A stretch of DNA of 64,000 nucleotides, from contig CAJINV010000001.1 of assembly GCA_905178155.1 (NCBI GenBank), forward strand, positions 14,942,142 to 15,006,141. The letters are read 5' to 3'. The notes under the pieces were generated by a model that was given only the letters and a program-made list of their open reading frames with translations, was not told where the DNA came from and ran no database searches. Of the stretch, positions 3,801 through 53,343 are shown one piece after another; within the stretch, counting starts at the first letter, position 1; every line of letters begins with the position of its first letter. Made by a program: the position numbers and the translations under genes. Source of the DNA: Amoebophrya sp. A120. Its lineage: Eukaryota > Protista > Dinoflagellata.

Positions 3801-5386
3801 AACTCCGCGTGGGCCTTTTCCAGCAGGTAGTCGTGCTGCAGTGTGTCGATCTGGACGGCTGACGCCGACAAAATTCTTGCTTGCGCGAAATCCCCCAACG
3901 CCATGTACTGTGGCAAATGCCGCCGCGGGCTGCCCGGCCGCCGTGAGGGCGTTGCTTGCCGTCGGCCAATGGAGTAAATGTCCATCAGGGCGTCCTCGTA
4001 CGGGGTGAAACTAAGTAACGAGTCCTGCTTTTTGTAATTTGTCAAGATCGACTTCATCTTCTTCAGCACGGGGCTGGTGCCAGACGTTTCATGCACAGCG
4101 GCCGGCTCGGGCATCAGAAAGCCCCGAATTCTCCCTGCGTTTTCGTAATCCCAGCGGTAATTGACATCAATCACCGACAAGCGATAGAAGCTGGAGGTGA
4201 AGAACACCGCCGGCTTGCCGATCGCGAAATTGGTCGACAGAACGGCGTTCGTGTCGCCCGAGGAGAGTGGGAAGGGCAGCCACCAAACCGGCAGCCAATT
4301 TCGGTGGTACATTGCTGCGTCGGTGAAGGTCGCCATCGTCGTGTCGATCCACTGCTGGTTGTCTTTCTGCCGTTCGGTCAGGATCCCGGCGGCGAGGTTG
4401 TTGGCGCCCAGTCGCGGGTTCAGGATGATGGACTTGCACGCCGTGGCAGTGTCGTTAGCGAAGTCGTTTGTGCAGGGGGGGTGCGCGTGGAGCCACGTAG
4501 GGAGCAGAGTTGTGGGGTGTTGCTTTTGCCACGCGGCATCAACCTCTGCGAAAAGGTTTCTCCAGAGCGTCACGTGCAGACGCACATTGGATGGTGGTCG
4601 AGAGAGCCGCTTGTTGTCCTGTCCCTGTTTCTCTTCTTCGTGGTCTCGCATGATCACGATAAACAAGTTGATCTGCGGCTTATTTTTCCTTGGATCCGCA
4701 TGATAAAAAATTTCCGCACACTGCTGCACTTCTTCTGCCTCTCGAACTGTTGGTAGGAATAAGACGATTTGCCGAAAGTTGTGAAGCTCCACTCCGGTGC
4801 GCCACACGGCGTCGCACAGGTTCATGTAATTCAACACGAACCACTGGCTCAAATCACCGAGCTCCGCGGCGTAAAAAACGGCCATGTTTCGCAAGTCCTT
4901 CAGAGTCCCAAACGACATCAGCAACGTCTCTTCGCTGCGGTTCGTTGCCTTGTAAGCGGGTTGAATCGGGATAGATGTAGTTTCGTGAAGATGGTTGTTC
5001 TTTTCGACCGCCTGCAACGCTTCCATGTGGAAAAACTCGTCATCCAATAGCGTGTTCAGCACAGCGTCGGCTGCTGCAATCACCTGCCCGGCTCGGTACC
5101 ACTTCACACCGACCTCCGGGTGGGCCTCGGACGCAATCCCGAACATCGGTCGGTCGGGCTCCACTTCGGCGCGCTTTCGCATTCCGCCTCCGATGGATAG
5201 TTTCAGGGCCGGCTCGACCACCTCGGAGTACAACTTCCACTGCGACCTCAGAACCTCCTTCTCGGCCGTGAGAGGTCTGCGCGACGTCCCCGCTTTCCTC
5301 CTTTTGGAGGTGGTGCCGTCGGGAGTTGCATGGCTCCAGTAGAGCGCAACCTGAAGCACGAGGACGGATTTTGCAACCAGCGACAT
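812..5386 (-). CDS. Large intronless protein (~1520 aa) with a degenerate acyl-CoA synthetase/ANL-like adenylation region
   Basis: Uninterrupted ORF; first plausible ATG is MSLVAKSV at 5386. Segments resemble long-chain acyl-CoA ligase motifs in the correct order: CKSIILNPRLGANNLAAGILT (position of the P-loop), ALGGGMP...ILHSWGSYE (GGA...YGxTE), IENAVVFG...IVAVIWP, HEIPIAVAISSEPW. Family call is by eye. Confidence 0.7.
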   Translation of the reverse strand: MSLVAKSVLVLQVALYWSHATPDGTTSKRRKAGTSRRPLTAEKEVLRSQWKLYSEVVEPALKLSIGGGMRKRAEVEPDRPMFGIASEAHPEVGVKWYRAGQVIAAADAVLNTLLDDEFFHMEALQAVEKNNHLHETTSIPIQPAYKATNRSEETLLMSFGTLKDLRNMAVFYAAELGDLSQWFVLNYMNLCDAVWRTGVELHNFRQIVLFLPTVREAEEVQQCAEIFYHADPRKNKPQINLFIVIMRDHEEEKQGQDNKRLSRPPSNVRLHVTLWRNLFAEVDAAWQKQHPTTLLPTWLHAHPPCTNDFANDTATACKSIILNPRLGANNLAAGILTERQKDNQQWIDTTMATFTDAAMYHRNWLPVWWLPFPLSSGDTNAVLSTNFAIGKPAVFFTSSFYRLSVIDVNYRWDYENAGRIRGFLMPEPAAVHETSGTSPVLKKMKSILTNYKKQDSLLSFTPYEDALMDIYSIGRRQATPSRRPGSPRRHLPQYMALGDFAQARILSASAVQIDTLQHDYLLEKAHAEFLDREDDERRKLSSGGTSSATGTNVTSEQQASEDELIDGKNFHEATQLFTAKWQYHWHLCALGGGMPQLVHHVWLVAKNVCQLILHSWGSYEQQRIGNAATPRIHRMAPNVKRVAIEPWRGYGGWEQGDKNDTSTSSQDDKIIGRLLLDTGIAGGNPDNLVRDLRNVSWMIPRTGFQQEEGALDKNHAQEEQSQENTTSKNETTTLFRTNNVVEILPRERLPAALRSDIAAVPVPGQADWRDHFYVKLIDKASGQFQIRNDTLWVRAGLIEDRISSFNLAGNEDEVEEMLAAEKEREDHPQSDLASDQTDNQDQAKNGVVAKDVEEVESDQLEKSAMSKFLIENAVVFGSGNTNGIVAVIWPSIQGWEVHAKLLENKCVDREKFWLKYVQTAVARGDKSFPSHEIPIAVAISSEPWEYRPRTKLREALRMAFFGIANKALPESVDYSELPLKKAKSISSATEGATSSSFWPVSALDDEGTKSHTPELQMGLVGQPIFQDRFGSFDRFFAYPIARLQNTDAAALAYRSWFDLVSVRATLRKEVAEFWNDAKQFHFVQERIGTVCNVYHEEHAMLCTKHTSALNKEKNAEAKDQGSFDEDPAPFTEVAARTFVVDALLGCVPAGAERKFSFSSCLLRDSSEIGLLREPHRTGKPVTAETTTADRLERLDEVPFHFWDLLGGGDSKIENRNKGALANSFSYLQKVQTLDAAGRLLFLTAVQDEIEFLYETKDVWLEVIPLKIPSLGRLYRLGEAVRIRLENARRLFAAGSVIGAAKTTSESTRILGQTKQFLLSSLLEDDHGHPRGQHEDQENKRAAQVGLYKKIMKLCYPEWHPRTEKIIAKSSGTVRGQRSGVEKVNSTTGKNNMTNSTSAATSREDQQLQRVFQLRYESFDVENGEYRKQTARIVDEHPFGSTEPGATIGVLPLQKGIVFDRRLTKSSKAAAGSSGRSSEADSEATEIANQARDECTAAGTDDTRCAGEAKNADTMHTDHDVLAEL

Positions 5387-6159: not shown

Positions 6160-8027
6160 TCACATCACACTTACGGAGACGCGGAATCGTTTCGGGTCCG
6201 TATCCCGGCGGTGCTCGACCGGAATCGGGTGTTCACAAGTTTCTTCCGGGTTTCCTAGATCCCTTGCCACTTGTTCCAGCGCGTGCCGAAACTTGCGTCC
6301 GGCCCAGAAAGACATGTCGCGGGGGATGGAGACGCGATCCCGCACGTAGCGCAAGGCCCGTGCGCTGTTCGGAGGAAGACGATCAATTTGGACCGCTTCA
6401 GGATCTCGCTCCCTGATCAGGTCCACGATCTGTGATTTTTGAAGTTGAGGTCTCTTCCTAAAACATTTGCATTTCGTTCTTGAACCAGATTCTAGCACAT
6501 CAGCTTGTCGGACCGTCATTCAAAGTCATCAGAGGGAAGGTTTATGTGTTTTGGTCATCAGAGAAACATCAGAGAACTTTGAAGACCAAAAACAACTATT
6601 TTCATCAGAGGAGGGCAGTGCGGAAACCTAGTTTACACTGCTGAGAGTGTCATCGACATTTGCCAGCTCTTTCAGAGGGAAGGTTTGTATGTTTTGGTCA
6701 TCAGAAGTCAGTGAACTTTGAAGACCAGAAACAATTTGTCTCATCCTTTCAAGCGCTGGCGTATAATTTGTACTGAGATCAGGAAAAACGACACTTTTGA
6801 TGTGTCAGAACCCATGCGCAATTTCTTTGTGTTAGTCATCAAAGTTGATCAGCGAACTTCGAAGACTTGTAACAAAAGGGACTCATCATGCTACAGTTCG
6901 TGAATTTAAACTTGGGACAATAAAAACGGAAGACCAATCACAACTCTTTGTACCTGTTGGCACGGTTCCCGCGCTGCGTGCTCTTCTACCAGCCTGGACA
7001 AGACGGCCCGCATGGCAAGATCAAACGCTTCCGACTTTCCATAAGGATTCGCACCAGCTACCTTTTCTCGGTGCCGCAGGACGCGGTACAGAATTTCCAG
7101 TCGCACGTCAGCAGGCTCGGGGAAGCAGTCCGACCTCACCTCAACGCCCTCCGGGATAGCGTCCGCGTCGCTCGCGGCACCATTCACCGGGTGGATTTTC
7201 GCATTTGCGTTCGGATGACAACCCCCTAATTGCGGCGGCAGATCGTGGACGTGCGTGTGGAAATCCGATTTCGTTCCGCGGTACACCTCTCGCGTCTCCA
7301 TCGCAGAGCACCACTTGTCCAAAATCGGATGCTCTTTCCGCAGCTGAAAGCCCTTGTAGTAATACAGGCTCGCGCACATCCGCTCCAAAAATGGTGCGAT
7401 CACACAGTCCGCGACGGTGAAGCTATCGCCTGCGAAGTAGGGACCGTTGCTCTTTGCCATGTGCGCTTCGACCTTTCCACAAACACCTTGAAAGTTCTGC
7501 CTCGCTTCCCGATCCGGGGCGTACGGATTACACAGCCAGTCGCACCAGGCGCGAAACAGCATACGCTCGAGCTTCCGACAGGCGATAATTGCCGGACTAG
7601 TGAGGCTCGCATTATTCAGCGCCCCGAATTCCTCTTCCAGTTCCTGTAGCACGTCATCCGAGTCAGTGACAAGATGCGTGATCTTCTTCGCGTCAGAAAC
7701 GTCGACAAACGCGAGGGCCGGAAGCATCCCAGAAGGAACGATTTTTTTATACCACGGCTCTTTCGCACCGTAGCAGAACATGGTAACTTTTCGCACTTCG
7801 TAGGGCACTCGCTTCTCCTCGAGCCACAGCCACACCTTTTGGCAGTAGGGACACCAGGCGTGGTTGTCGCGAAACAGCACCACCCGTGGCTGCTTCTGCC
7901 CGAACAAGCGCGCCGTCGCGTGGGCATTGGTAGTCCCGTTCACGCCATCTGGTACCTGGTACGCGCTCGCGACAATTCGCGCCAGCGAGTTCCAGCTGCG
8001 GACCAGCTGCGAGGAAGATCCAGACAT
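6160..8027 (-). CDS. Glutathione S-transferase family protein (CPYC type), 2 exons
   Basis: Motifs RDNHAWCPYCQKVWLWLEEK, VPSGMLPAL, TDSDDVL and GPYFAGDSFTVAD. GT-AG intron 6430-6953 joins ...PCQQ|IVDLIRE... in frame to the C-terminal exon (ALRYVRDRVSIPRDMS...RRDTDP). Confidence 0.9.
6529..6608 (-). ncRNA. Intronic box C/D snoRNA candidate, copy 1
   Basis: Minus strand: C box cTGATGA, guide TCTTCAAAGTTC-T, D' CTGA, C' TGATGA, guide AAACCTTCCC-T, D box CTGA; 80 nt. Confidence 0.7.
6672..6747 (-). ncRNA. Intronic box C/D snoRNA candidate, copy 2
   Basis: C box AGGATGA, guide TCTTCAAAGTTC-A, D' CTGA, C' TGATGA, guide AAACCTTCCC-T, D CTGA. Flanks form a 9/10-bp terminal stem (GCCAGCGCTT / AAGAGCTGGC). 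Confidence 0.75.
6805..6889 (-). ncRNA. Intronic box C/D snoRNA candidate, copy 3 (different D guide)
   Basis: Perfect C box ATGATGA, guide TCTTCGAAGTTC-G, D' CTGA, C' TGATGA, guide ATTGCGCATGGGT-T, D CTGA. Confidence 0.7.
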
Positions 8028-25153: not shown

Positions 25154-26285
25154 CTAGGACTCGACTTTTTTGGCCGACCATTCCAGCAGCTCACCGATCT
25201 CTGTCGCCGTGAGGCCAGCACGATCCTTGACGAAGCAGGTGTCAAGCCCAGCTTTTTCACCCTTCTTTATCTCGTCGCGATCATCCTCGACAAGCATGCA
25301 GGGTCGCCCGTTCGCCAGTTTCAAACACACTTCCGCTTTCGAACTCCACTTCGCGCAGTCTTTCCGGTCGATATGCGTCTCCACCTCTGGTGCGAACTTA
25401 GTCCTGACAAATAGTTTTTCTTGTTTGGTTGATATGGTGATAGAAAGTAATTAAGCGTGCACAATTCGGTCTCATGTCCAACCAAAAAAAATTCACGACT
25501 GAGAGGAAGACTACTACTAACTACTGGTAGCTTTAGGTTTAGCAGAGACAAAAATCAGCGCAATAAAATCGTGCTTACTGCATTGCATTGAGGTCGTATT
25601 CTCTGGCATCCTGCATGCTCGTGTAGTCGTCGATTCTGGCGTACACATCGTCAAAGTGCGGCAACAACTTCGTTTTCTCCAAAATCAGTCACTATCCACA
25701 GCAACTGTGCCTGGGTTTGGATGAATGCCAATGCGTCGAGCAAATCTAAATCATCAATCTGGGTGATGCAAAAATAAACTGCCACGTGGCAGATACCCGC
25801 ACTCCTTCAAACCCAGACGCATTTGCATTTGATAATCGTATTGGCGCAACTAAACCCTTGGAACAGACGACCAGGGAACACCCGTTCGTTCGTAGTTTCT
25901 TGAAGGTCTTCTCCATCTCTGCAATCTGTTCCTTCCCGCCGAGACAATGCTCGTAGAATTTGCCTGTCGGAGGGAGTTAGCACAACATAGAAAGGGAATT
26001 TGGATTGCTAGTACGAGTTTGAAAACCTCCAATGGTAACGACAAGATCAAGGGTCGGGCGAGTGGTACCTTTCATTTCCTCGTCCGCCTCGAAGCACTTC
26101 TGGATCTGCCCTCTCTCTGAGAGCGCGTAGGGCCCATCAAGAAAGTTCCCCCGTCCGAGCGTGACAAAACCGGCGAGGCACTTGAAGACGTGACACTGGG
26201 AAATGGTCTGATCAAAGTCAAAAACTATTACTTTCGTCTTCGGAACCTGCCCGCCCCGTGGCGTACCTTTCCGCGAGCCTGGCAT
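25154..26285 (-). CDS. HAD-superfamily phosphatase-like protein, 4 exons
   Basis: Motif I VIVFDFDQT, motif II VVCS and motif IV LVEDD. GT-AG introns 25964-26068 and 25404-25578, plus a 147-nt non-canonical intron around 25690-25836 joining GLVAPIR|LILEKTK. Confidence 0.85.
25693..25834. mobile_element. Degenerate introner/MITE, TIR family A, in the HAD gene
   Basis: Ends TATCAAATGCAAATGCGTCTGGGTTTGAAG and TATCCACAGCAACTGTGCCTGGGTTTGGATG are inverted and match the TIR of the 45647 and 51134 elements. Flanks are ACGAT/GTGAC (eroded TSD). In-frame stop inside. Confidence 0.75.
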
Positions 26286-44566: not shown

Positions 44567-46672
44567 TTACGACGTCGTTTTCGCGACTCCGAAGGTACTT
44601 GACTCCAACACGTTCGGCGCGAACGCCTGCCCCGACGCCACTGTGCGGCGCAGTAGTCTTGATAGCGTGTTCAGCTTACTCATTTCGCCGAGCCTCCGCT
44701 CCCGCGCCCAGTTGTTGCTAGTCCGGGCCACTTGCGCAGCCTTTTCAATTTCCGCCTCGTAAAAGGCCATCATGTTTTCCTCCTTCTTGACGTCTTCCAT
44801 TTTGTGCGTGAAAATCCTCTGTGGGCCGAACTTCCAGGGCTGCAGAAACGTTTTTCGGACCTTGTAGCGGTCCCCGAGGATATCTTTGGCTTCGGCCAGT
44901 TGGGTTTTGGACAGCAGCTGCAGGTGCTTCGACGGCTGGTATCCGTGTCCGTGTGGGTCGTCCATGGCCAGGAAGGGCTTTACCGCCCCGCGCATGAACT
45001 TCGCGGTTTTGTTTAGGTCCTTCACCTCCGGAATCTTCTGGTTCTGCAGCCGGTACGTTGTACTGCTATCCTTCGAAAGGAGGACGGCGGTCTGACTCTG
45101 CGGCACCTGTTGAGAGGGGAAGGAGAGAAATAGTAGATGTAGAAGATGGGGCCAAGCTTACAATACACACGAAAAGGCGCGGCGCGCGACCCTGCTACAA
45201 GGTGGCGCAAAGGATGAGGGCGGCGGGCGGCAGCGGACGCGGACGCTCGCTGCCTCCCCCGCGGCGTTTTGGAAATAAAAACGCAGCGGAGGAGGAATCG
45301 AACCCCTGGGCGTCACCGCCCCCCGCGGGTTGAAGCCGCGTCCGAGCACCAGCCCGGCTCACCACTGCCCTGAGCGGATATACAACCTAAGGAAAAGCCT
45401 TCACCCGGGTAGCCAGAATAGCTACTGCTAAAAACGGCATTCGGGCAAAAAAAGCGCACCATATCTTTTTTTGAGGGTATTTATTCGTAAAAAAGAAAAA
45501 AAAACCTACAAGTAGATGTACCTTCTCCCCGCCAATGACGCCTACCGTCTCGTTCGTTTCAAAATGGCCATAGGGGTTCATGGCCACTTGCCTTTCCGGG
45601 TGCGTCCGCTCCGCTAGGTTTATTGGCCCGCCGATCTTATCCTTCGTATCAAGTGTAAAAATGTCTGGGTCTGGAAGGTGTGATGCGCATTTCAGAACAC
45701 AGAAAAATCTCTCATGCATAGGCAGCAAAAGTTGCCCATTTTCTGTCACCAAAGTCAGGGATTTGTCATGCAGATTCGGCATTGCGAACGCTTCTCGAAA
45801 CCTGTGATGCTAGAGCTTCCATGCCAGACCTTCTGTGTCATGCAAAAGCAGCATGATTCTTCCAGACCCAGACATTTTTACATTTGATACTTCGCCGTCT
45901 GCTTCCATTTCCGCCCTGAGGTGCGGTTCGCTTCCTGCTGCGAGACAAAGCTGTCGGTGGGAAAGCCGTGGACGTCGAACGGGAGATCCAGCCCCGGGGT
46001 CGCGCTGGAGGAAGCGGAAGATCCCAGCACCAGGCTCGACGCGCTGCCGCCAGAGGGGGACGGCGTCTGGCGCTTCGTGGGGGTCTCAATTTGCGAGGAT
46101 GCGGTAGGGGAAACGATCGGGGAGGGCGCAGTAGTCGCGGTTTTAGCGGACGTAGGGGAGGGGGCGGCACCTGAGAAAATGTTGGAAAGTAAAAATTAAG
46201 AGCGACTTTTCAACTCATGGGATCATGATCAGCAAAACTCACAAACTATTTTTTCGGAAAAAAGTAAGTACATTCATCCTTGCTGGGTATAGGATGGCAG
46301 TACAAGACAGAAGTGATCAAGAAGTTGGAGTTTTACTACACGCTAATCAATACCTTTTGCTTGGTCCTTGCTGTCGTCCTCGTCCTCGGCTTTGGGCTCG
46401 ACTTTCTTCCCCTTTTTTTCCCAAATATCGTCCGCCCGGGTTAGCACTGCAAACCTCTCGGCCCGCTGTTGCAGGAAGGCTTCCACGTCCCGCTGTCCGC
46501 GTTTCTTAAACTGGTTGGTCTGCTCTTTTAGCCATCGGTCGCTACGCTGGCCGTACATGGAACGGTACTTGCCGCACCGGAATTCCCAGTTCTTGAACTG
46601 CTTTCCAGCCAACATTTGGCCTTCGCGCAGCTGGACCTCCGGCCCGGACTCGACATGTTGTCCGCGACCCAT
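44567..46672 (-). CDS. Hypothetical protein, at least 4 exons; host of tRNA-Sec and an introner
   Basis: ATG at 46672 (MGRGQHV). GT-AG intron 46171-46353, 248-nt non-canonical intron around 45643-45890 and GT-AG intron 45107-45521 give one continuous frame to the stop at 44567. Confidence 0.8.
45277..45281 (-). terminator. Pol III oligo-T terminator of tRNA-Sec
   Basis: TTTTT immediately after the discriminator base on the minus strand. Confidence 0.7.
45282..45368 (-). tRNA. tRNA-Sec: tRNA-Sec (selenocysteine, anticodon UCA)
   Basis: 87-nt 9/4 cloverleaf: acceptor GCAGTGGTG/CTCCGCTGC, 6-bp D stem CCGGGC-TGGT-GCTCGG, anticodon arm CGCGG-CT TCA AC-CCGCG, long variable arm GGGCG-GTGA-CGCCC, 4-bp T stem GGGG-TTCGATT-CCTC, discriminator G. 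Confidence 0.96.
45647..45889. mobile_element. Introner/MITE, TIR family A
   Basis: 243 bp; 31-bp TIR TATCAA(A/G)TGTAAAAATGTCTGGGTCTGGAAG with 1 mismatch; 5-bp duplication cttcg at 45642-45646 and 45890-45894. Removal restores QTAK|DKIGG. Confidence 0.93.
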
Positions 46673-47339
46673 TTTTGTGAGGGTGTGATACAGGAGATGA
46701 GCTGTGTCCGGTAACACTTATGGGGGAGTCAAGACAAAGTGTTGAAAGAGTAAGTGAAAGAAAAATAGTAACGTCAAGAAAAAGAAACAGTCAATGGAAA
46801 GAGTCAAAAATGAGCTGGGGGTCTTGATGAAGATCCTGTGGGGGTGTCTTGAAAGCAACTTACTTGATTACGAATGTTGCGCGCAACGACAGCTTCTGGA
46901 CGGACCGAGGTTAGTACTCCTTCAGATTTGGTGTTTTCTGTACGAGCTATTAGCACTAGAGCACAACGAAAGCAGAATCGAAGAACGATCCACGAACCAG
47001 TGAAAACAGGGACGATGAGGAGAACGAATTGAACGAAAACCAGGGACGACAAGAAGCATGAACGGGTAAGAATGAACAGAACCGACAATTCTCATCGAAT
47101 GCGGTACGAGAGATGAACAAGAGCACCAGAGTCTACCATCTTTTTTTCTTTCCGTGGTTGACGAGTTGTGAAATCAATGTCTTCATTCTCTAGTTGGTGG
47201 TTGCCTCATTCTGCACAAGTTCCAAGTCGGTAGTTTACACAAACATTTTTTACGTATGACAATCGGTTTCATCTGATACACTCTGTAACAACAACTTGAG
47301 CAAAAAAATATTTCTTTAGTCTTTACGTATATCAACTGC

Positions 47340-50300
47340 TTACCCTGCGGTGGTATCATCGTGAAAGTTCTGTGCGAAGAATCCGCCAGACCGGAGCAGC
47401 TCCTGTGGCGTTCCGAACTCCGCCGCGCGCCCGTTTTGCATGACCAAGACTTTGTCACATCGTGTCAAAGTCGCCAGTCGGTGCGCAATGAGAAACACCG
47501 TGTGATTCCTCAAAGTCGTCCTCAGCAATGATGTGATGCGCTGGTCCGTGGCCGCGTCCAGGTTTGAGGACGGCTCGTCCAGTAACACGATCTGTGCCTC
47601 GTCTTTTCGCAAGACCATCCGCGCGAACGCGATCAGTTGTGCCTCTCCCGCCGATAAGTTTGCGCCGCCGGCCTCGATTCTTGTGTCAAGCGTGATCGTG
47701 TGGGAATCTTTTTTGGCACCAGCTTTCGTCGGAGACTGCGAAGTGGAAGTAAATACAGGAGGATTTAGATTCATTTCATCTGTTCTATTTCCAGTAGCTG
47801 TAGTCTGTAGTCCATCATCATCTTCCAAATCGACGTCGACAAACACCAAAGAGAAGGCGGTCTCAATCTCCTCGGGCAGAAACTCGTCGAAGGGATCGAG
47901 GTTTTCCCGCACCGTACCGTCCATGAGGAAAGGTTTTTGCGGCACCATGAAAAGATTCCGCCTCAAGTGGTACAGCGGGAGGTGCTTTGTGTCATACTCG
48001 CCGATCTTTATCGTCCCCGTTTCGACGTTGGCAAAGCGAAACAGCATGGCACACAAACTTGACTTCCCGGCACCGGTTGGCCCGCAAACCCCAATGTGTT
48101 CCCCCTGCGTGATCTTGAGATTAAAATCTGAAATCGCGAGCGGAAAGTTCTCCGAGTAGCGCAACGAGCAGTTCTGGAAACGGATTTTCGCAGATTTCAT
48201 CTTCTTGCCTTGCTTGATGTGTGCAGCCGCAGTGCCATCGGTGTCTTCCGCAACATGATCCAACCGTGGCAACAGCGAGGGAACATTGAGCACGTTTTTT
48301 GCAGTCTGGCTAATAGTGCTCTCCTTACTCGGTGAGCGTTGTTCGAAAGAATCTGCCGTGATTGCGACGGGTGGCCCACCGGATTGTTCGGTGTAGGAAA
48401 ATTGGTAAGATCGGCGTCTTGTCAGCTTCGAATCTGTGAGACTCGATGTTGATGTCGTACTGCTGCTTCTTGCAACTACGTTATTTCCCTTTTGAAGATG
48501 ATTCTTCGCCGCGTAGGTGAGCATGAATTTCTCGTGCTGTCTCCGAAACTCGGCCAGGGGCTCTTCTTGCGGCGTCTCTTGAAGGCGGAAAACGCGCTCG
48601 CACTGCATCAATCCCAGGGAGAGAATGAAGTAGAACTGCGCGATCAAATTGAACATGAAGGGCATGATGAAGCAGTAGCCCACAATCAACCCGATGATCG
48701 GGCGCGGGATCGATTCCCTGGCGTTGTAAAGGAACAAAACCAGCGAGGCGGCGACGATGGCAGACAGGAAGTAGCAGCACAGATTCGAGAAGATGGTGAT
48801 TTCCTGAGCGGCGTACCAGCACCGCAGGTACGTGTTCATTCGGTCGCAGTGCTTGTCCAGAAAGTATTTTTCCAGTTTCATAATCCGCGAGAGCGACGCC
48901 CCGTCGATGGCCTCACTCACGTTGGCGACCACGGGGGACAACGCGAGGGAGGCCAGCCGCTTCGTGTCCCGAATTCCGTACAACACGAGCTGGCAGAGCT
49001 TCAAGTACACCAGCGCGACGATGACAATCACGATCGAGGTAAACGGGACGACAAAAATTTGCAGTCCGAGGATCGTCACGCCCAGTCCGCAAAACTGCAT
49101 CCACACTTCGGTGATGGTGGAAAATTGCACATCTACTCCGCTCAAGTCGGTGGATAGCGGGCCGTACACCTTCCCACTACTCGCTTCGTCAAAAAAGAGG
49201 AGTGGTGCGCCGAAAACGCGGATCACAGAGAGATCGTGCAAAGCTCGCCCCGCTCGGGCAGCACCGTGGTAGTACAGCAGGCCGAAGCAGCTGGACAGAA
49301 TCGCGAACGCCAACGCACAGCCGAAGTACAGGACAAACCACGTGCTCTCAAATGTCTCCAAGTTTCGGTCGTTCCCCTTGCGGAGCCACTCCGCGAGAGC
49401 CAGTTCGCTTGAGGCCAGCACGCCGTAGGTGGTGAGCCAGGAAAAAACCATCAGCAACAAGTTGGTCGTGCCGAAAAGGAGAAAGTACTCGCGAATGTAT
49501 TTGCGCCCGGTGCCCGTATTTTTCTGTTCTTCTTTCAGGAATTTTCGCGAATACTCGTCTTTTTCAAGAACAGAAGATTGCTCTTGGCCCACCTCCTGTG
49601 TCCTTGTTTTGCTTCCCCTGGTTGTACTGTTAAGCGATGTTGCGCCGTCCAGTGACACTACGGTGCCGACGGTTTCGTCGCTCTCCTTGGACACACGACT
49701 GGTATCTCTGATCAAGCTCGGATCGAGCAAGTCTGGCAGAGAATTCTTGTTTTTCGTTCTGGCGAGTCCAAGCGTTTTAGTCACATCTGGTGCCGCGCCG
49801 TCTTCAAGTTGTTGTATGTTAGTACCGGGCACGACGTCTACTTCTTCTTGCAATTCTATGTCCGTCGGGCCCGTTGCTGTCGATGATTCGGGCAGCGCAG
49901 TTTTTAAAACTCCTTTGTCTAGTTGCAAGACAAAGTCGGTCTGGGACAGCAGCGCGGCTTGGTTGAAAGCGAGAAACACCAGCTTTCCGTCCTTGGCGTA
50001 ATGGCGCAAATTGTCAAAAATTGCAACTCCAGTCGTGTGGTCGACCGCCGCTAACGGGTCGTCTGCGACCAGAATGTCCGGGTCGCCGGCCCACGCGCGC
50101 GCCAAATTCAGCCGAGCCTGTTGCCCGCCCGAAAGCGTTACGCCGCCCTGGCCGATCTCCGTGTAGAGCGTCAGCTCCTGCTGCGGTTGGGCGGATTCGT
50201 TCTTGGTTTCGCGAGAATGAGCACTGTCATCCTTCGTGATTGGCGATACACTTGGATGCGCGGCAATCGATGTAGAAGTTCTCGTATCTTCCGTGCCCTG

Positions 50301-52597
50301 ATCTGCGAAAGAAGTCAACAGCCTTGCACGGATCAACGCCTCTTGGATTTGCGCCAATGACAAGTGTTTTCGGCCCATCCGCACATTCTCTTCGATCGTT
50401 CCGGTGACGACAAAAGCCCGCTGCGGACAGTAACCGACGTTACACGTCGAAAACTTAATTTTTCCGCTGGTTGGGCACTGCTCGCCGAGCCAGGTCAACA
50501 GCAAAACCGTCTTTCCCGAACCCACAGCGCCGACTACGCCGATCAGTTTGGATTGCGGCGGCAGGGTGACGGAAGCATCAGTCAGCGCAACAACCATCGT
50601 CGTCTCCACTCCTGATGTGCTGACCAGTGTTTCGTCTTTTTTCGCAACCGCCGATGAGGTTATCGTTTCTTTCTTTGCATCAGATGAATTTTTGTTTTGC
50701 GCGGCTAAATCCCCGGACTTTGTTGTGCTTTGCCGCTGCAACTTCACTTCCACATCGGTCATCGCGCAGGCCTCCGTCGTAGCTGTTCCTTCGTCCATTA
50801 ATTTTCTGTATTCCTCCCGCTCTGGCAGGTTCAAATACTTCTCCAAACGCTGCAACGTTTGCACAAAGACCACCATGTTCACGACATTTATGGGAATCAG
50901 GACCATGGCGCCCCGCATCCCCTGCAGCACCGCGAGCACCGGAAACACGAGCTCCACGGTCAAGGGCTCGGCTCCGTCGTGCCAGTAGAGATACGTTGTG
51001 AGGGCGAACACCGCCGCGAGGACGGGCAGACACCGGCCTAAGTTACTCCCGAGCACCTTGTACTGCTGCCACAGTTCGATGGCGCGCGTTTCTTTGTTCC
51101 GAAACTCCTGCAATTTGTGGAAATACCTACCCTTATCAAATGCAAAAATGTCTGGGTCTGGAAGAGTCGGGACTTGTCATGCACATTTTGCATGACCCGT
51201 GAGGTCTGTGATGCTGGTGCTAGCATCACAGATTTTTTGAGAGCTTCTTGATGCTGATTACGCATGAGAGATGCCCTCTCCGCGTGCCAAGAACTGACTC
51301 CTCTTGCTGCTCATGCAACACAGATATTTCTAGAATCCGCAGACAGCATTACAAGTTCCACTCTTCCAGACCCAGACATTTTTGCAATCCATAACCCTCC
51401 CAGCACGCGTATTTCACGCCCCGGATGTTCGCCAGCGCCTCCTATGGAAGCGTCAGGATTGAAATCGACAAAGTTGAAATAATTCCTCATGCAAAAATTG
51501 CAAGGCATGAAGTGCCTCTCTTGCAGGCATGGCAAGCGAGGCCGACTGCCAGCCTGTTTGGGGTCTGCGATAGAGCTGCTAAAGTAGCATGACAAAAGAC
51601 GCCTTCTGTCCCTAAACAGCATAACAAACAGGATTTAGACGGTGCCGAAATTTGTCATGCACCGCTGAGAAATGGGGCTTTTAACTGGTATCGATTTTAT
51701 GCATTACAAGTTATTTCAACTTTGACGATTTCAATCCTGACGCTTCCATACCTCCCGTAGGCACTGCAGTCTCCCGCCGGCGTGCACCACGGCCTGCGCC
51801 TCGTATTTTCGCGAGGTGATCAAACGATGGAAGGACACCCCGATGCCGCAAAGCACGAACAGGACGGTCCACACGCCGACGATGTCAAGGAGAACCATCA
51901 GGTAGGCTGACCCGACGGTCAGGGAGACGAAACTGCTCGGGATCCAGCCGAAGACAAAGCCGACGAGATTTGCCTTGCCCAAAATTTCCACAGAAATCAG
52001 CATCTGCGCATCCGCGGCTTTCGGCGCGGGCGTTGCGGCGGGTGGATCAGGTTTATTTTTGCCTTCGTTTTTGGTACCTGATGTTGCAGTTGTAGCAGCG
52101 GGAGCACTGCCAGTATGATGATCCTGCACGCGCTGCATCTTCCACACGATCAACGCAGAAAGCATGCCCTGGAGTTTCGTCCAGAATTTCGCGACCAGCA
52201 CATCGTTTCCGTGCAGCCAGCAGCATCCCTCAAAAAGGATGGGGCCGACAATCGCGAGTAGTATCAGTTCCAGTCTCGGACTCTCCGCATTCATCTCTTT
52301 CAACACAAATCGCACGGCCTCTGGTCGGGCGATCACCATCACCAATCCCTGCATCGTGCCCCAGAATAGGCCGCGAATCACCAGCCCGCGGGTCATGCGC
52401 CAAACCGTCTTCGGTAAGTTTCCCCCGCATTCCTTCAGAACCGGTAGCGTTTCCCGAAGAAGCTTTTCACTGTCTACATCCAGAAGATGGTTCACATCGG
52501 GGAAGTCGAGACTGCCCTCCTTGTAGTTCTTCCAGATCACCGGCGCGACGTCGGTCTTGAAGAGCACATCGAAAATGCGCGAACAAAAAGGAGCCAT
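47340..52597 (-). CDS. ABC transporter, ABCC/MRP-like (TMD-NBD-TMD-NBD), 3 exons
   Basis: NBD1 GAVGSGKT / LSGGQ / ILVADDPL; NBD2 GPTGAGKS / LSAGE / IVLLDEP / IAHRL. Removing two TIR introns gives CLREALANIRGVKYACWEGRYFHKLQEFRNKE, matching the ABCC TMD1 IR.IK.YAWE region. Confidence 0.93.
51134..51393. mobile_element. Introner/MITE, TIR family A, in the ABC transporter
   Basis: 260 bp; TIR TATCAAATGCAAAAATGTCTGGGTCTGGAAGAGT versus TATGGATTGCAAAAATGTCTGGGTCTGGAAGAGT; 5-bp duplication accct at 51129-51133 and 51394-51398. Confidence 0.93.
51443..51750. mobile_element. Introner/MITE, TIR family B, in the ABC transporter
   Basis: 308 bp; 40-bp TIR TATGGAAGCGTCAGGATTGAAATCG(A/T)CAAAGTTGAAATAA; 5-bp duplication cctcc at 51438-51442 and 51751-51755; compatible with a GT-AG intron 51439-51751. 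Confidence 0.93.
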
Positions 52598-53343
52598 GGC
52601 TGATTGATTTTTTGTAACAACGGGAAGTAAGGTGGGTATTTTAAGGATATGAAAACGGATCACTTGTTACACATTGGATGAGCGCGCGGGCGAATGATCG
52701 GCAAGAACTGAATTAATACTATGCCCTGAACAAGTAATTCCAACTTAGTTCATGTTAGTCCATGAGTGAAAACAGTAGAAGTCGTTTCACAAAAAATAAA
52801 TACTTAGATACGAGCCTAGTATGAAGCACGTAAAACGCTAGAATATTAAGTGGCGCATTATTTCCTTTCTTGCGATATAGCCAAAAGAGACTGCGATTGA
52901 TTTTGTTTTTTCATGGGGTACTGCGACAAAAGATTTTGACGAGGTTCAAGCACCTTCTTGACCTTCTAGACCGCCGTCACCAAATGAATTCCATATATCC
53001 GCTTCACAATTTCCTTGTTTCGCAAAACAAACACAGAAACATCACCACCGACAACTGATCTCGTACAGCATGGGAACACCTTACGACTCAATTTCGTGTC
53101 ACTCGAAGAGCGCAGTAGAAGTTTGAGCAACTTTTTCAGAATCTTTCGAAGAAATAGAAAAGACGTCCCGATTGCAAAGAACGTATGTGTCCATGCGCAA
53201 GTTACAGCTATAAGGAGAAAAGGAGTAATCGAAAAATCCTGCTCCAGAAGAAGCAAAATTCGAAAACATCACTTCCCTCCTCTACTACCATGCGGTGAAA
53301 TCGTTGTAACTACTTGACACCCCCCAGGATGAACAACCTAGTG

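Follow-up and report, generated by a model that had tools for sequence, protein, structure and literature searches.

An inverted copy of the tRNA-Sec 3′ half lies downstream of the tRNA-Sec gene in a spliced intron of Amoebophrya sp. A120

How can a tRNA gene lie in sense orientation inside an intron without the host pre-mRNA being cut by the enzymes that process tRNAs? Sense-nested tRNA genes are common, and the escape of the host pre-mRNA from such cutting is rarely addressed. The question is posed by a tRNA-Sec gene of Amoebophrya sp. A120 that lies within an intron of a protein-coding gene, on the same strand, in the 64,000-nt stretch of DNA analyzed here (the window; positions count from its first base). 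This locus offers a concrete answer, together with a genome-wide prediction. The reading that we favor, and to which we would give an even chance of being right, is that the gene in the spliced intron likely works as a Pol III unit of its own, and that an inverted arm beyond its terminator is predicted to conceal the tRNA within the host pre-mRNA.

Introns make up about 57% of the non-exonic DNA of A120, as computed from Table 1 of PMC7789003. In C. elegans, 264 of 608 tRNA genes are nested (PMC3342880), 56% of the intronic tRNAs are in sense orientation (PMC4999229), and tRNA-Sec itself is intronic (PMC2943599). Within the genus, a genome survey of Amoebophrya sp. ex Karlodinium veneficum gave one UGA-reading tRNA-Sec, accompanied by selT, selM, and selO transcripts (PMC6394959); the terms SeC and TCA do not occur in five supplementary files of that study, and a supplementary figure may hold more. 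Thus, both the tRNA and its nesting are of a familiar kind.

The host gene consists of four coding exons and three introns, all on the minus strand:

46354 to 46672, minus strand: coding exon 1 (transcript contig, which starts at 46919), with the ATG at 46672
46171 to 46353, minus strand: intron 1, 183 nt, GT-AG (transcript contig and sequence)
45890 to 46170, minus strand: coding exon 2, with a low-complexity Ser/Pro/Thr stretch (transcript contig)
45642 to 45889, minus strand: intron 2, a 248-nt non-canonical introner with 32-nt terminal inverted repeats and a 5-nt direct repeat
45522 to 45641, minus strand: coding exon 3 (transcript contig)
45107 to 45521, minus strand: intron 3, which holds the tRNA-Sec gene, 415 nt, GT-AG, phase 0, between codons 240 and 241 (transcript contigs and sequence)
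44567 to 45106, minus strand: coding exon 4, ending in TAA (transcript contig, which continues to 44246)

A contig of run X1, 1828 nt long and with a depth of 63.5, extends from 46919 to 44246, joins the four exons, and skips 183, 248, and 415 nt. A contig of run X4, which is a different sample of the same study, has the same 415-nt and 248-nt joints. Both runs are RNA by a guessed label only, and their contigs are without the three introns; the raw-read runs X7 and X8 matched introner repeats only and did not cover the host exons. On the plus strand the joints have CT..AC ends, which places the tRNA-Sec gene and its host on the same strand. The spliced frame encodes 419 aa and agrees letter for letter with the A120 protein GSA120T00011397001 (P0005), and retention of intron 3 would bring a stop in all three frames less than 100 codons from the start of exon 3. 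The first-pass annotation had described a 415-nt GT-AG interval between two in-frame exons on the strand of the tRNA, and the X1 and X4 contigs and the 419-aa frame confirm it. It had also named the observation that would overturn this arrangement, namely flanking exons on separate transcripts, and the X1 contig has them on a single one. An intergenic tRNA between two genes is ruled out by the spliced contigs.

The host protein has orthologues in Amoebophrya AT5.2 (P0002, 52% identity) and A25 (P0003, 39%). A search with exon 4 returned four proteins, and the one from outside the genus (P0004) is a weak repeat-protein match with an E value of 1e-4. None of the three orthologues has a Pfam match, and for function the Atlas gave no usable match and the structural model a pTM of 0.13. 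Nothing that we found links the protein to selenium, and in our reading it would play no part in selenium metabolism.

A strict sequence pattern, which reaches close relatives only, returned three metagenome loci (L001, L002, and L003), all recognized as tRNA-Sec by Rfam. L002 is the sister of the window: its exon 4 is identical at 518 of 540 positions, and it carries the same tRNA in the same intron, there 413 nt long. L001 belongs to an Amoebophrya-like lineage, its host protein being most similar to proteins of A25 (40%) and A120 (35%). Its tRNA-Sec gene also lies in sense orientation, within a predicted 253-nt GT-AG intron (3858 to 4110) of a KH-domain gene; this join ranks first of 67 in-frame candidates, and six of eight homologues continue across it within two residues. 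In L003, the tRNA-Sec gene shares its strand with both neighbors, an open frame upstream that ends at 197 and a sedlin-like frame downstream; a search for the lineage of this locus matched only L003 itself. That the gene has changed hosts argues against a special tie to the A120 host. The coupling of selenoprotein synthesis to the host gene, proposed when the locus was first annotated, loses its footing here, since the host has no Pfam match and the L001 tRNA sits in an unrelated KH-domain gene. Several smaller features of these loci deserve record. In the L001 intron, G73 lies just 40 bases from the 3′ splice site, and an A precedes the four Ts of the T-run; a fucosyltransferase-like frame (PF00852) occupies 1615 to 2175 of the same locus, upstream of the KH host gene. 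The sedlin-like frame of L003 runs from 1130 to 1456 (PF04628, E 5e-5), downstream of the tRNA-Sec gene and co-oriented with it.

The features of the tRNA gene and its immediate flanks are the following:

45369 to 45401, minus strand: fast-changing 5′ flank
45282 to 45368, minus strand: tRNA-Sec gene with the eukaryotic 9/4 fold (ARAGORN, Rfam), 87 of 87 bases the same in L002
45333 to 45331, minus strand: anticodon UCA, with the discriminator G at 45282
45329, minus strand: C at anticodon-loop position 38, also C in L001 and L002, A in L003
45294 to 45304, minus strand: consensus B box (from sequence), invariant in four of four aligned sequences
45277 to 45281, minus strand: five-T run, a candidate Pol III terminator, four Ts of which also close the fold-back stem described below

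ARAGORN calls a single tRNA gene in the window, tRNA-SeC(tca) at 45283 to 45366 on the minus strand. The only Rfam match at gathering level in the window is RF01852, at 45283 to 45368 on the same strand, with 67.1 bits (gathering score 47) and an E value of 1.6e-11. The acceptor stem has 9 bp, including one U-U; the D stem has 6 bp with a 4-nt loop, the variable stem 5 bp, and the T stem 4 bp. G73 is followed directly by the five Ts. The complete 9/4-fold tRNA-Sec with a T5 terminator that had been claimed is thus borne out by ARAGORN, Rfam, the stems, and G73, and the covariance model, whose rejection of the structure would have undone the claim, accepts it. The window shares the 9/4 fold, the 6-bp D stem, the long variable arm, UCA, and G73 with eukaryotic tRNA-Sec as described by RF01852. 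It differs in a variable arm about 5 nt below consensus length and at position 38, where eukaryotic tRNA-Sec has A and the window, L002, and L001, but not L003, have C. The motif A36-A37-A38 is required for i6A37 (PMC10275265), and since C38 breaks it this tRNA-Sec may be without i6A37.

The gene is conserved as well as recognizable. None of its 87 bases differs between the window and L002, against a background of 7.3% (P 0.0014), and 5 of its 29 stem pairs have changed on both sides among the three distinct sequences. Across the alignment, 96.6% of the cells are paired in a structure that was itself derived from the same sequences. The tRNA-Sec of the spliced intron is real and conserved, and probably functional.

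Beyond the T-run, the intron contains a feature that is absent from the first-pass annotation, as is the introner of intron 2 (45889 to 45642): the segment 45270 to 45220 on the minus strand is an inverted copy of the tRNA-Sec 3′ half and T-run (36 of 51 alignment columns, score 39). It starts seven bases beyond the T-run and can be divided as follows:

45252 to 45270, minus strand: proximal inverted arm, 19 nt, with 16 Watson-Crick pairs, 1 G-U, 2 mismatches, and a 7-nt loop
45220 to 45251, minus strand: distal inverted arm, a partial complement of the T loop, variable arm, and anticodon 3′ strand, with a hairpin of its own possible
45172 to 45219, minus strand: rest of the G+C-rich island, with a second hairpin of putative role

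With three choices of region, and 2000 dinucleotide shuffles for each, no shuffle reached the score of 39, nor did any of 1179 other segments of the window. This test was chosen after the feature had been noticed, and L002 repeats the result (38 of 50 columns, score 49, 0 of 1000 shuffles). No significant inverted copy is present in L001 (602 of 1000 shuffles) or L003, or in the upstream control regions of all four loci. The proximal arm complements the T-run, the acceptor 3′ strand, and the T-stem 3′ strand. In L002 the complementarity is perfect, with 19 of 19 pairs, and all three proximal differences between the two sequences make the window arm the weaker one.

The arm lies in a region with 76% G+C over 45176 to 45270, and the four Ts at 45175 to 45172 are a possible back-up terminator. 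Between 45172 and 45251, this island also forms two hairpins of its own, 2 of whose 25 pairs have changed on both sides between the window and L002; these could represent a structured RNA in its own right or another conformation open to the arm. A second tRNA or other known RNA in the island was considered and discarded, with no ARAGORN call and no Rfam match above gathering score; eight further Rfam matches (E 0.23 to 6.5) are at chance level. Equally discarded was a convergent full-length tRNA on the plus strand or an inverted pseudogene. No plus-strand cloverleaf is present, and similarity of the arm to the tRNA 5′ half is not significant (311 of 5000 shuffles in the window, 4705 of 5000 in L002). 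Among the best-ranked literature matches no paper title describes such an arm, which is weak evidence of absence. A likeness is found in intronic snoRNAs, where an embedded noncoding RNA pairs with its flanking intron, as in the window (PMC10324135). Those snoRNAs are cut from the intron, whereas here the embedded RNA is a tRNA and its partner an inverted copy of itself.

The consequences of the arm were explored by predicted folding, with an equilibrium model that leaves out tertiary structure and kinetics. When the RNA stops at the T-run, the cloverleaf is predicted, with an acceptor stem probability of 0.996. The energy gap by which the fold-back is favored over the cloverleaf is 0.2 kcal/mol up to 20 trailer bases. 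At 25, 30, and 35 trailer bases, it is 5.5, 13.2, and 13.1 kcal/mol in the window and 8.6, 17.0, and 18.2 kcal/mol in L002, and the 35-base gaps of both were reached by none of 300 shuffles each. The corresponding gaps at 35 bases in L001 and L003, which lack the arm, are 0.2 and 0.6 kcal/mol. At 70 trailer bases, 7 of 300 shuffles reach the window gap, and the L003 gap is 5.4 kcal/mol (5 of 300). In read-through RNA, as in the host pre-mRNA, the fold-back is predicted to be favored by 11–23 kcal/mol. The zero acceptor probability in long RNAs was discarded as support for the arm, since shuffled 120-nt trailers also break the acceptor stem (159 of 200) and the arm-less loci behave alike. This quantity being unspecific, energy gaps were compared with shuffles instead.

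These predictions suggest how one stretch of DNA might serve two polymerases. Pol III would start just upstream of the gene, use the B box, and stop in the T-run, and its arm-less product would fold as a cloverleaf. Pol II transcribing the host would read through; after 25–30 more bases the arm could invade by way of the single-stranded G73 and T-run and displace the acceptor and T stems. The pre-mRNA would then present no substrate to RNase P or RNase Z and would be spliced intact. The arm itself may have arisen by inverted duplication of the tRNA 3′ end after the A120 lineage had split from L001 and L003.

Whether selection has shaped the arm for this purpose is a separate matter. We put forward tentatively, as a possibility that falls well short of probable, that the arm is a selected anti-tRNA mask, so that the one sequence yields a tRNA if Pol III terminates and an inert hairpin if Pol II continues past the terminator. 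If so, an essential tRNA gene could be tolerated in sense orientation in a host intron, with the pre-mRNA spared cutting by RNase P and RNase Z, and a tRNA would possess a folding switch that depends on the polymerase. Such arms should then be enriched behind sense intronic tRNAs in Amoebophrya and elsewhere. Two considerations temper the proposal. Being made first, the cloverleaf might be cleaved before the arm has been transcribed, which counts against a mask. Moreover, the L001 gene is intronic in sense orientation without an arm, and with 56% of intronic tRNAs in C. elegans in sense orientation, a mask is not generally required. Caenorhabditis intron-nested tRNAs resemble the window in that the tRNA gene lies wholly within an intron of a Pol II gene, and the available text of PMC3342880, PMC4999229, and PMC2943599 describes no fold-back copy of a tRNA 3′ half. 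The Amoebophrya host differs from those of Caenorhabditis in being lineage-specific and in changing between relatives.

A rather unlikely alternative is that the tRNA is made wholly or partly by Pol II and that RNase P and RNase Z then release it from the excised intron, in the manner of tRNA-Sec production from Pol II transcripts in trypanosomatids. In that case, the arm would hold back folding until after the intron had been spliced out or the 3′ end trimmed, and tRNA output would depend on the host promoter. There are precedents: Pol II produces tRNA-Sec in T. brucei, where it is cut from Pol II transcripts (PMC2943599), both polymerases act on that of L. major (PMC6463643), and an intronic C. 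elegans tRNA is under host-promoter control (PMC4999229). The trypanosomatid genes resemble the window in lying in sense orientation in a Pol II unit, at a site that varies by lineage, among co-oriented gene blocks. They differ in being intergenic, with a degenerate B box and proven Pol II dependence (PMC2943599, PMC2695483, PMC6463643), whereas the tRNA-Sec of the window is intronic and has a consensus B box. Placement also speaks for Pol II to some degree. The gene is co-oriented with its neighbors in three of three independent contexts, two of them intronic and with different hosts. However, three sense placements would arise by chance 1 time in 8, and the intron share of the non-exonic DNA is high.

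The B box is intact, whereas that of the Pol II-made trypanosomatid tRNA-Sec is degenerate, with two changes (PMC2943599, PMC2695483); since the B box doubles as the T loop, its conservation is not independent evidence of a promoter. The T-run is at position +1 or +2 in three unrelated contexts (T5 in L002 and L003, A followed by T4 in L001). A T-run follows every trypanosomatid tRNA gene (PMC2695483), so that its presence is compatible with Pol II as well. Vertebrate-type Pol III units of tRNA-Sec carry an upstream TATA, a proximal element, and an activator; inspection by eye of the 130 upstream bases of the four loci revealed no TATA-like motif in common, which would suit Pol II. A conserved block at the start of the intron (116 of 120 identical) was considered as a promoter and rejected, since 13 of 110 non-coding windows match it.

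Change concentrated right at the tRNA 5′ flank points to Pol III. Relative to L002, 13 of 32 aligned bases of this flank are substituted, against a background of 119 of 1635 (7.3%; binomial P 1.5e-7), although patches with at least 13 changes in 33 bases occur elsewhere in 31 of 6645 windows, or about three places in 8 kb. A fast-changing flank beside a conserved tRNA is the pattern of active Pol III tRNA genes (PMC6130373). Production from the intron is further opposed by the predicted preference of the arm for a non-tRNA fold there, and human intronic mitochondrial-type tRNAs are reportedly not processed as tRNAs (PMC7722341). The first-pass annotation had left the choice between an independent Pol III unit and a tRNA processed from the intron. 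The intact B box, the T-run at +1 or +2, the fast-changing 5′ flank, and an arm predicted to block the cloverleaf in the intron favor the former, and the latter fares less well. Beyond that choice, the tRNA-Sec gene is now located in Amoebophrya A120, and within the group it has moved between host introns, echoing the trypanosomatids. Amoebophrya is thus a place to ask whether Pol II production of tRNA-Sec arose again.

It is also unlikely, in our estimation, that the gene is an independent Pol III unit and the arm an inert relic of an inverted duplication or template switch, with no effect on host or tRNA. Quasi-palindrome repair keeps the part nearest the loop matched, and complementarity does fall away with distance from the loop; changes on the tRNA side would be purged by selection on the tRNA. 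The arm differs between the window and L002 at 3 of 19 proximal positions and, farther from the loop, at 17 of 76, no less often than background. It is missing from two of the three related loci, one of them a sense intron, and the A120 genome is rich in inverted-repeat elements (PMC7789003). Against a relic, L002 keeps its 19 of 19 pairs inside a zone otherwise changed at 22–23%, the arm covers the strands that processing enzymes require, and the energy gap is large and arises right after the terminator. In a comparison of two sequences the arm is no more conserved than background, and selection for it is at most a possibility. If the arm is neutral, the annotation of an ordinary nested tRNA-Sec remains.

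Finally, a single copy is the usual assumption for tRNA-Sec, with exceptions (PMC5330540), and it is very improbable that the window copy is silent or spare and the working gene elsewhere in the genome: C38 breaks the motif for i6A37 (PMC10275265), and neither X1 nor X4 has contig depth on the intron, which contigs cannot turn into evidence of absence, but C38 also occurs in L001, the stems are compensated, and all 87 bases have been kept while both flanks diverged.

The long gene-like frames of the window are mostly on the minus strand, in line with the 98.5% of A120 genes that lie in co-oriented blocks (PMC7789003), and no viral contigs matched. Two small direct-repeat families (34 and 38 nt), with a spacing of about 140 bases, occupy 6529 to 6954. 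Directly upstream of the host is an ABC transporter gene (47340 to 52666, minus strand; ABC_tran, ABC_membrane).

Amoebophrya introners have non-canonical ends, terminal inverted repeats of 8–20 nt, and direct repeats of 3–5 nt, and they are strain-specific (PMC7789003). Intron 2 of the host fits this description in its ends, inverted repeats, 5-nt direct repeat, and strain specificity, being absent from the sister locus L002; its 32-nt inverted repeats are longer than those described. It belongs to a family with three members in the window (45642 to 45889, 51133 to 51394, and 25693 to 25840) that have terminal repeats in common. A second inverted-repeat element, with 55-nt arms that are 89% complementary, lies at 51443 to 51750 inside the ABC transporter gene. 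It is about 50 bases from the family member at 51133 to 51394, and the gap between the two is either a very short exon or part of a compound intron.
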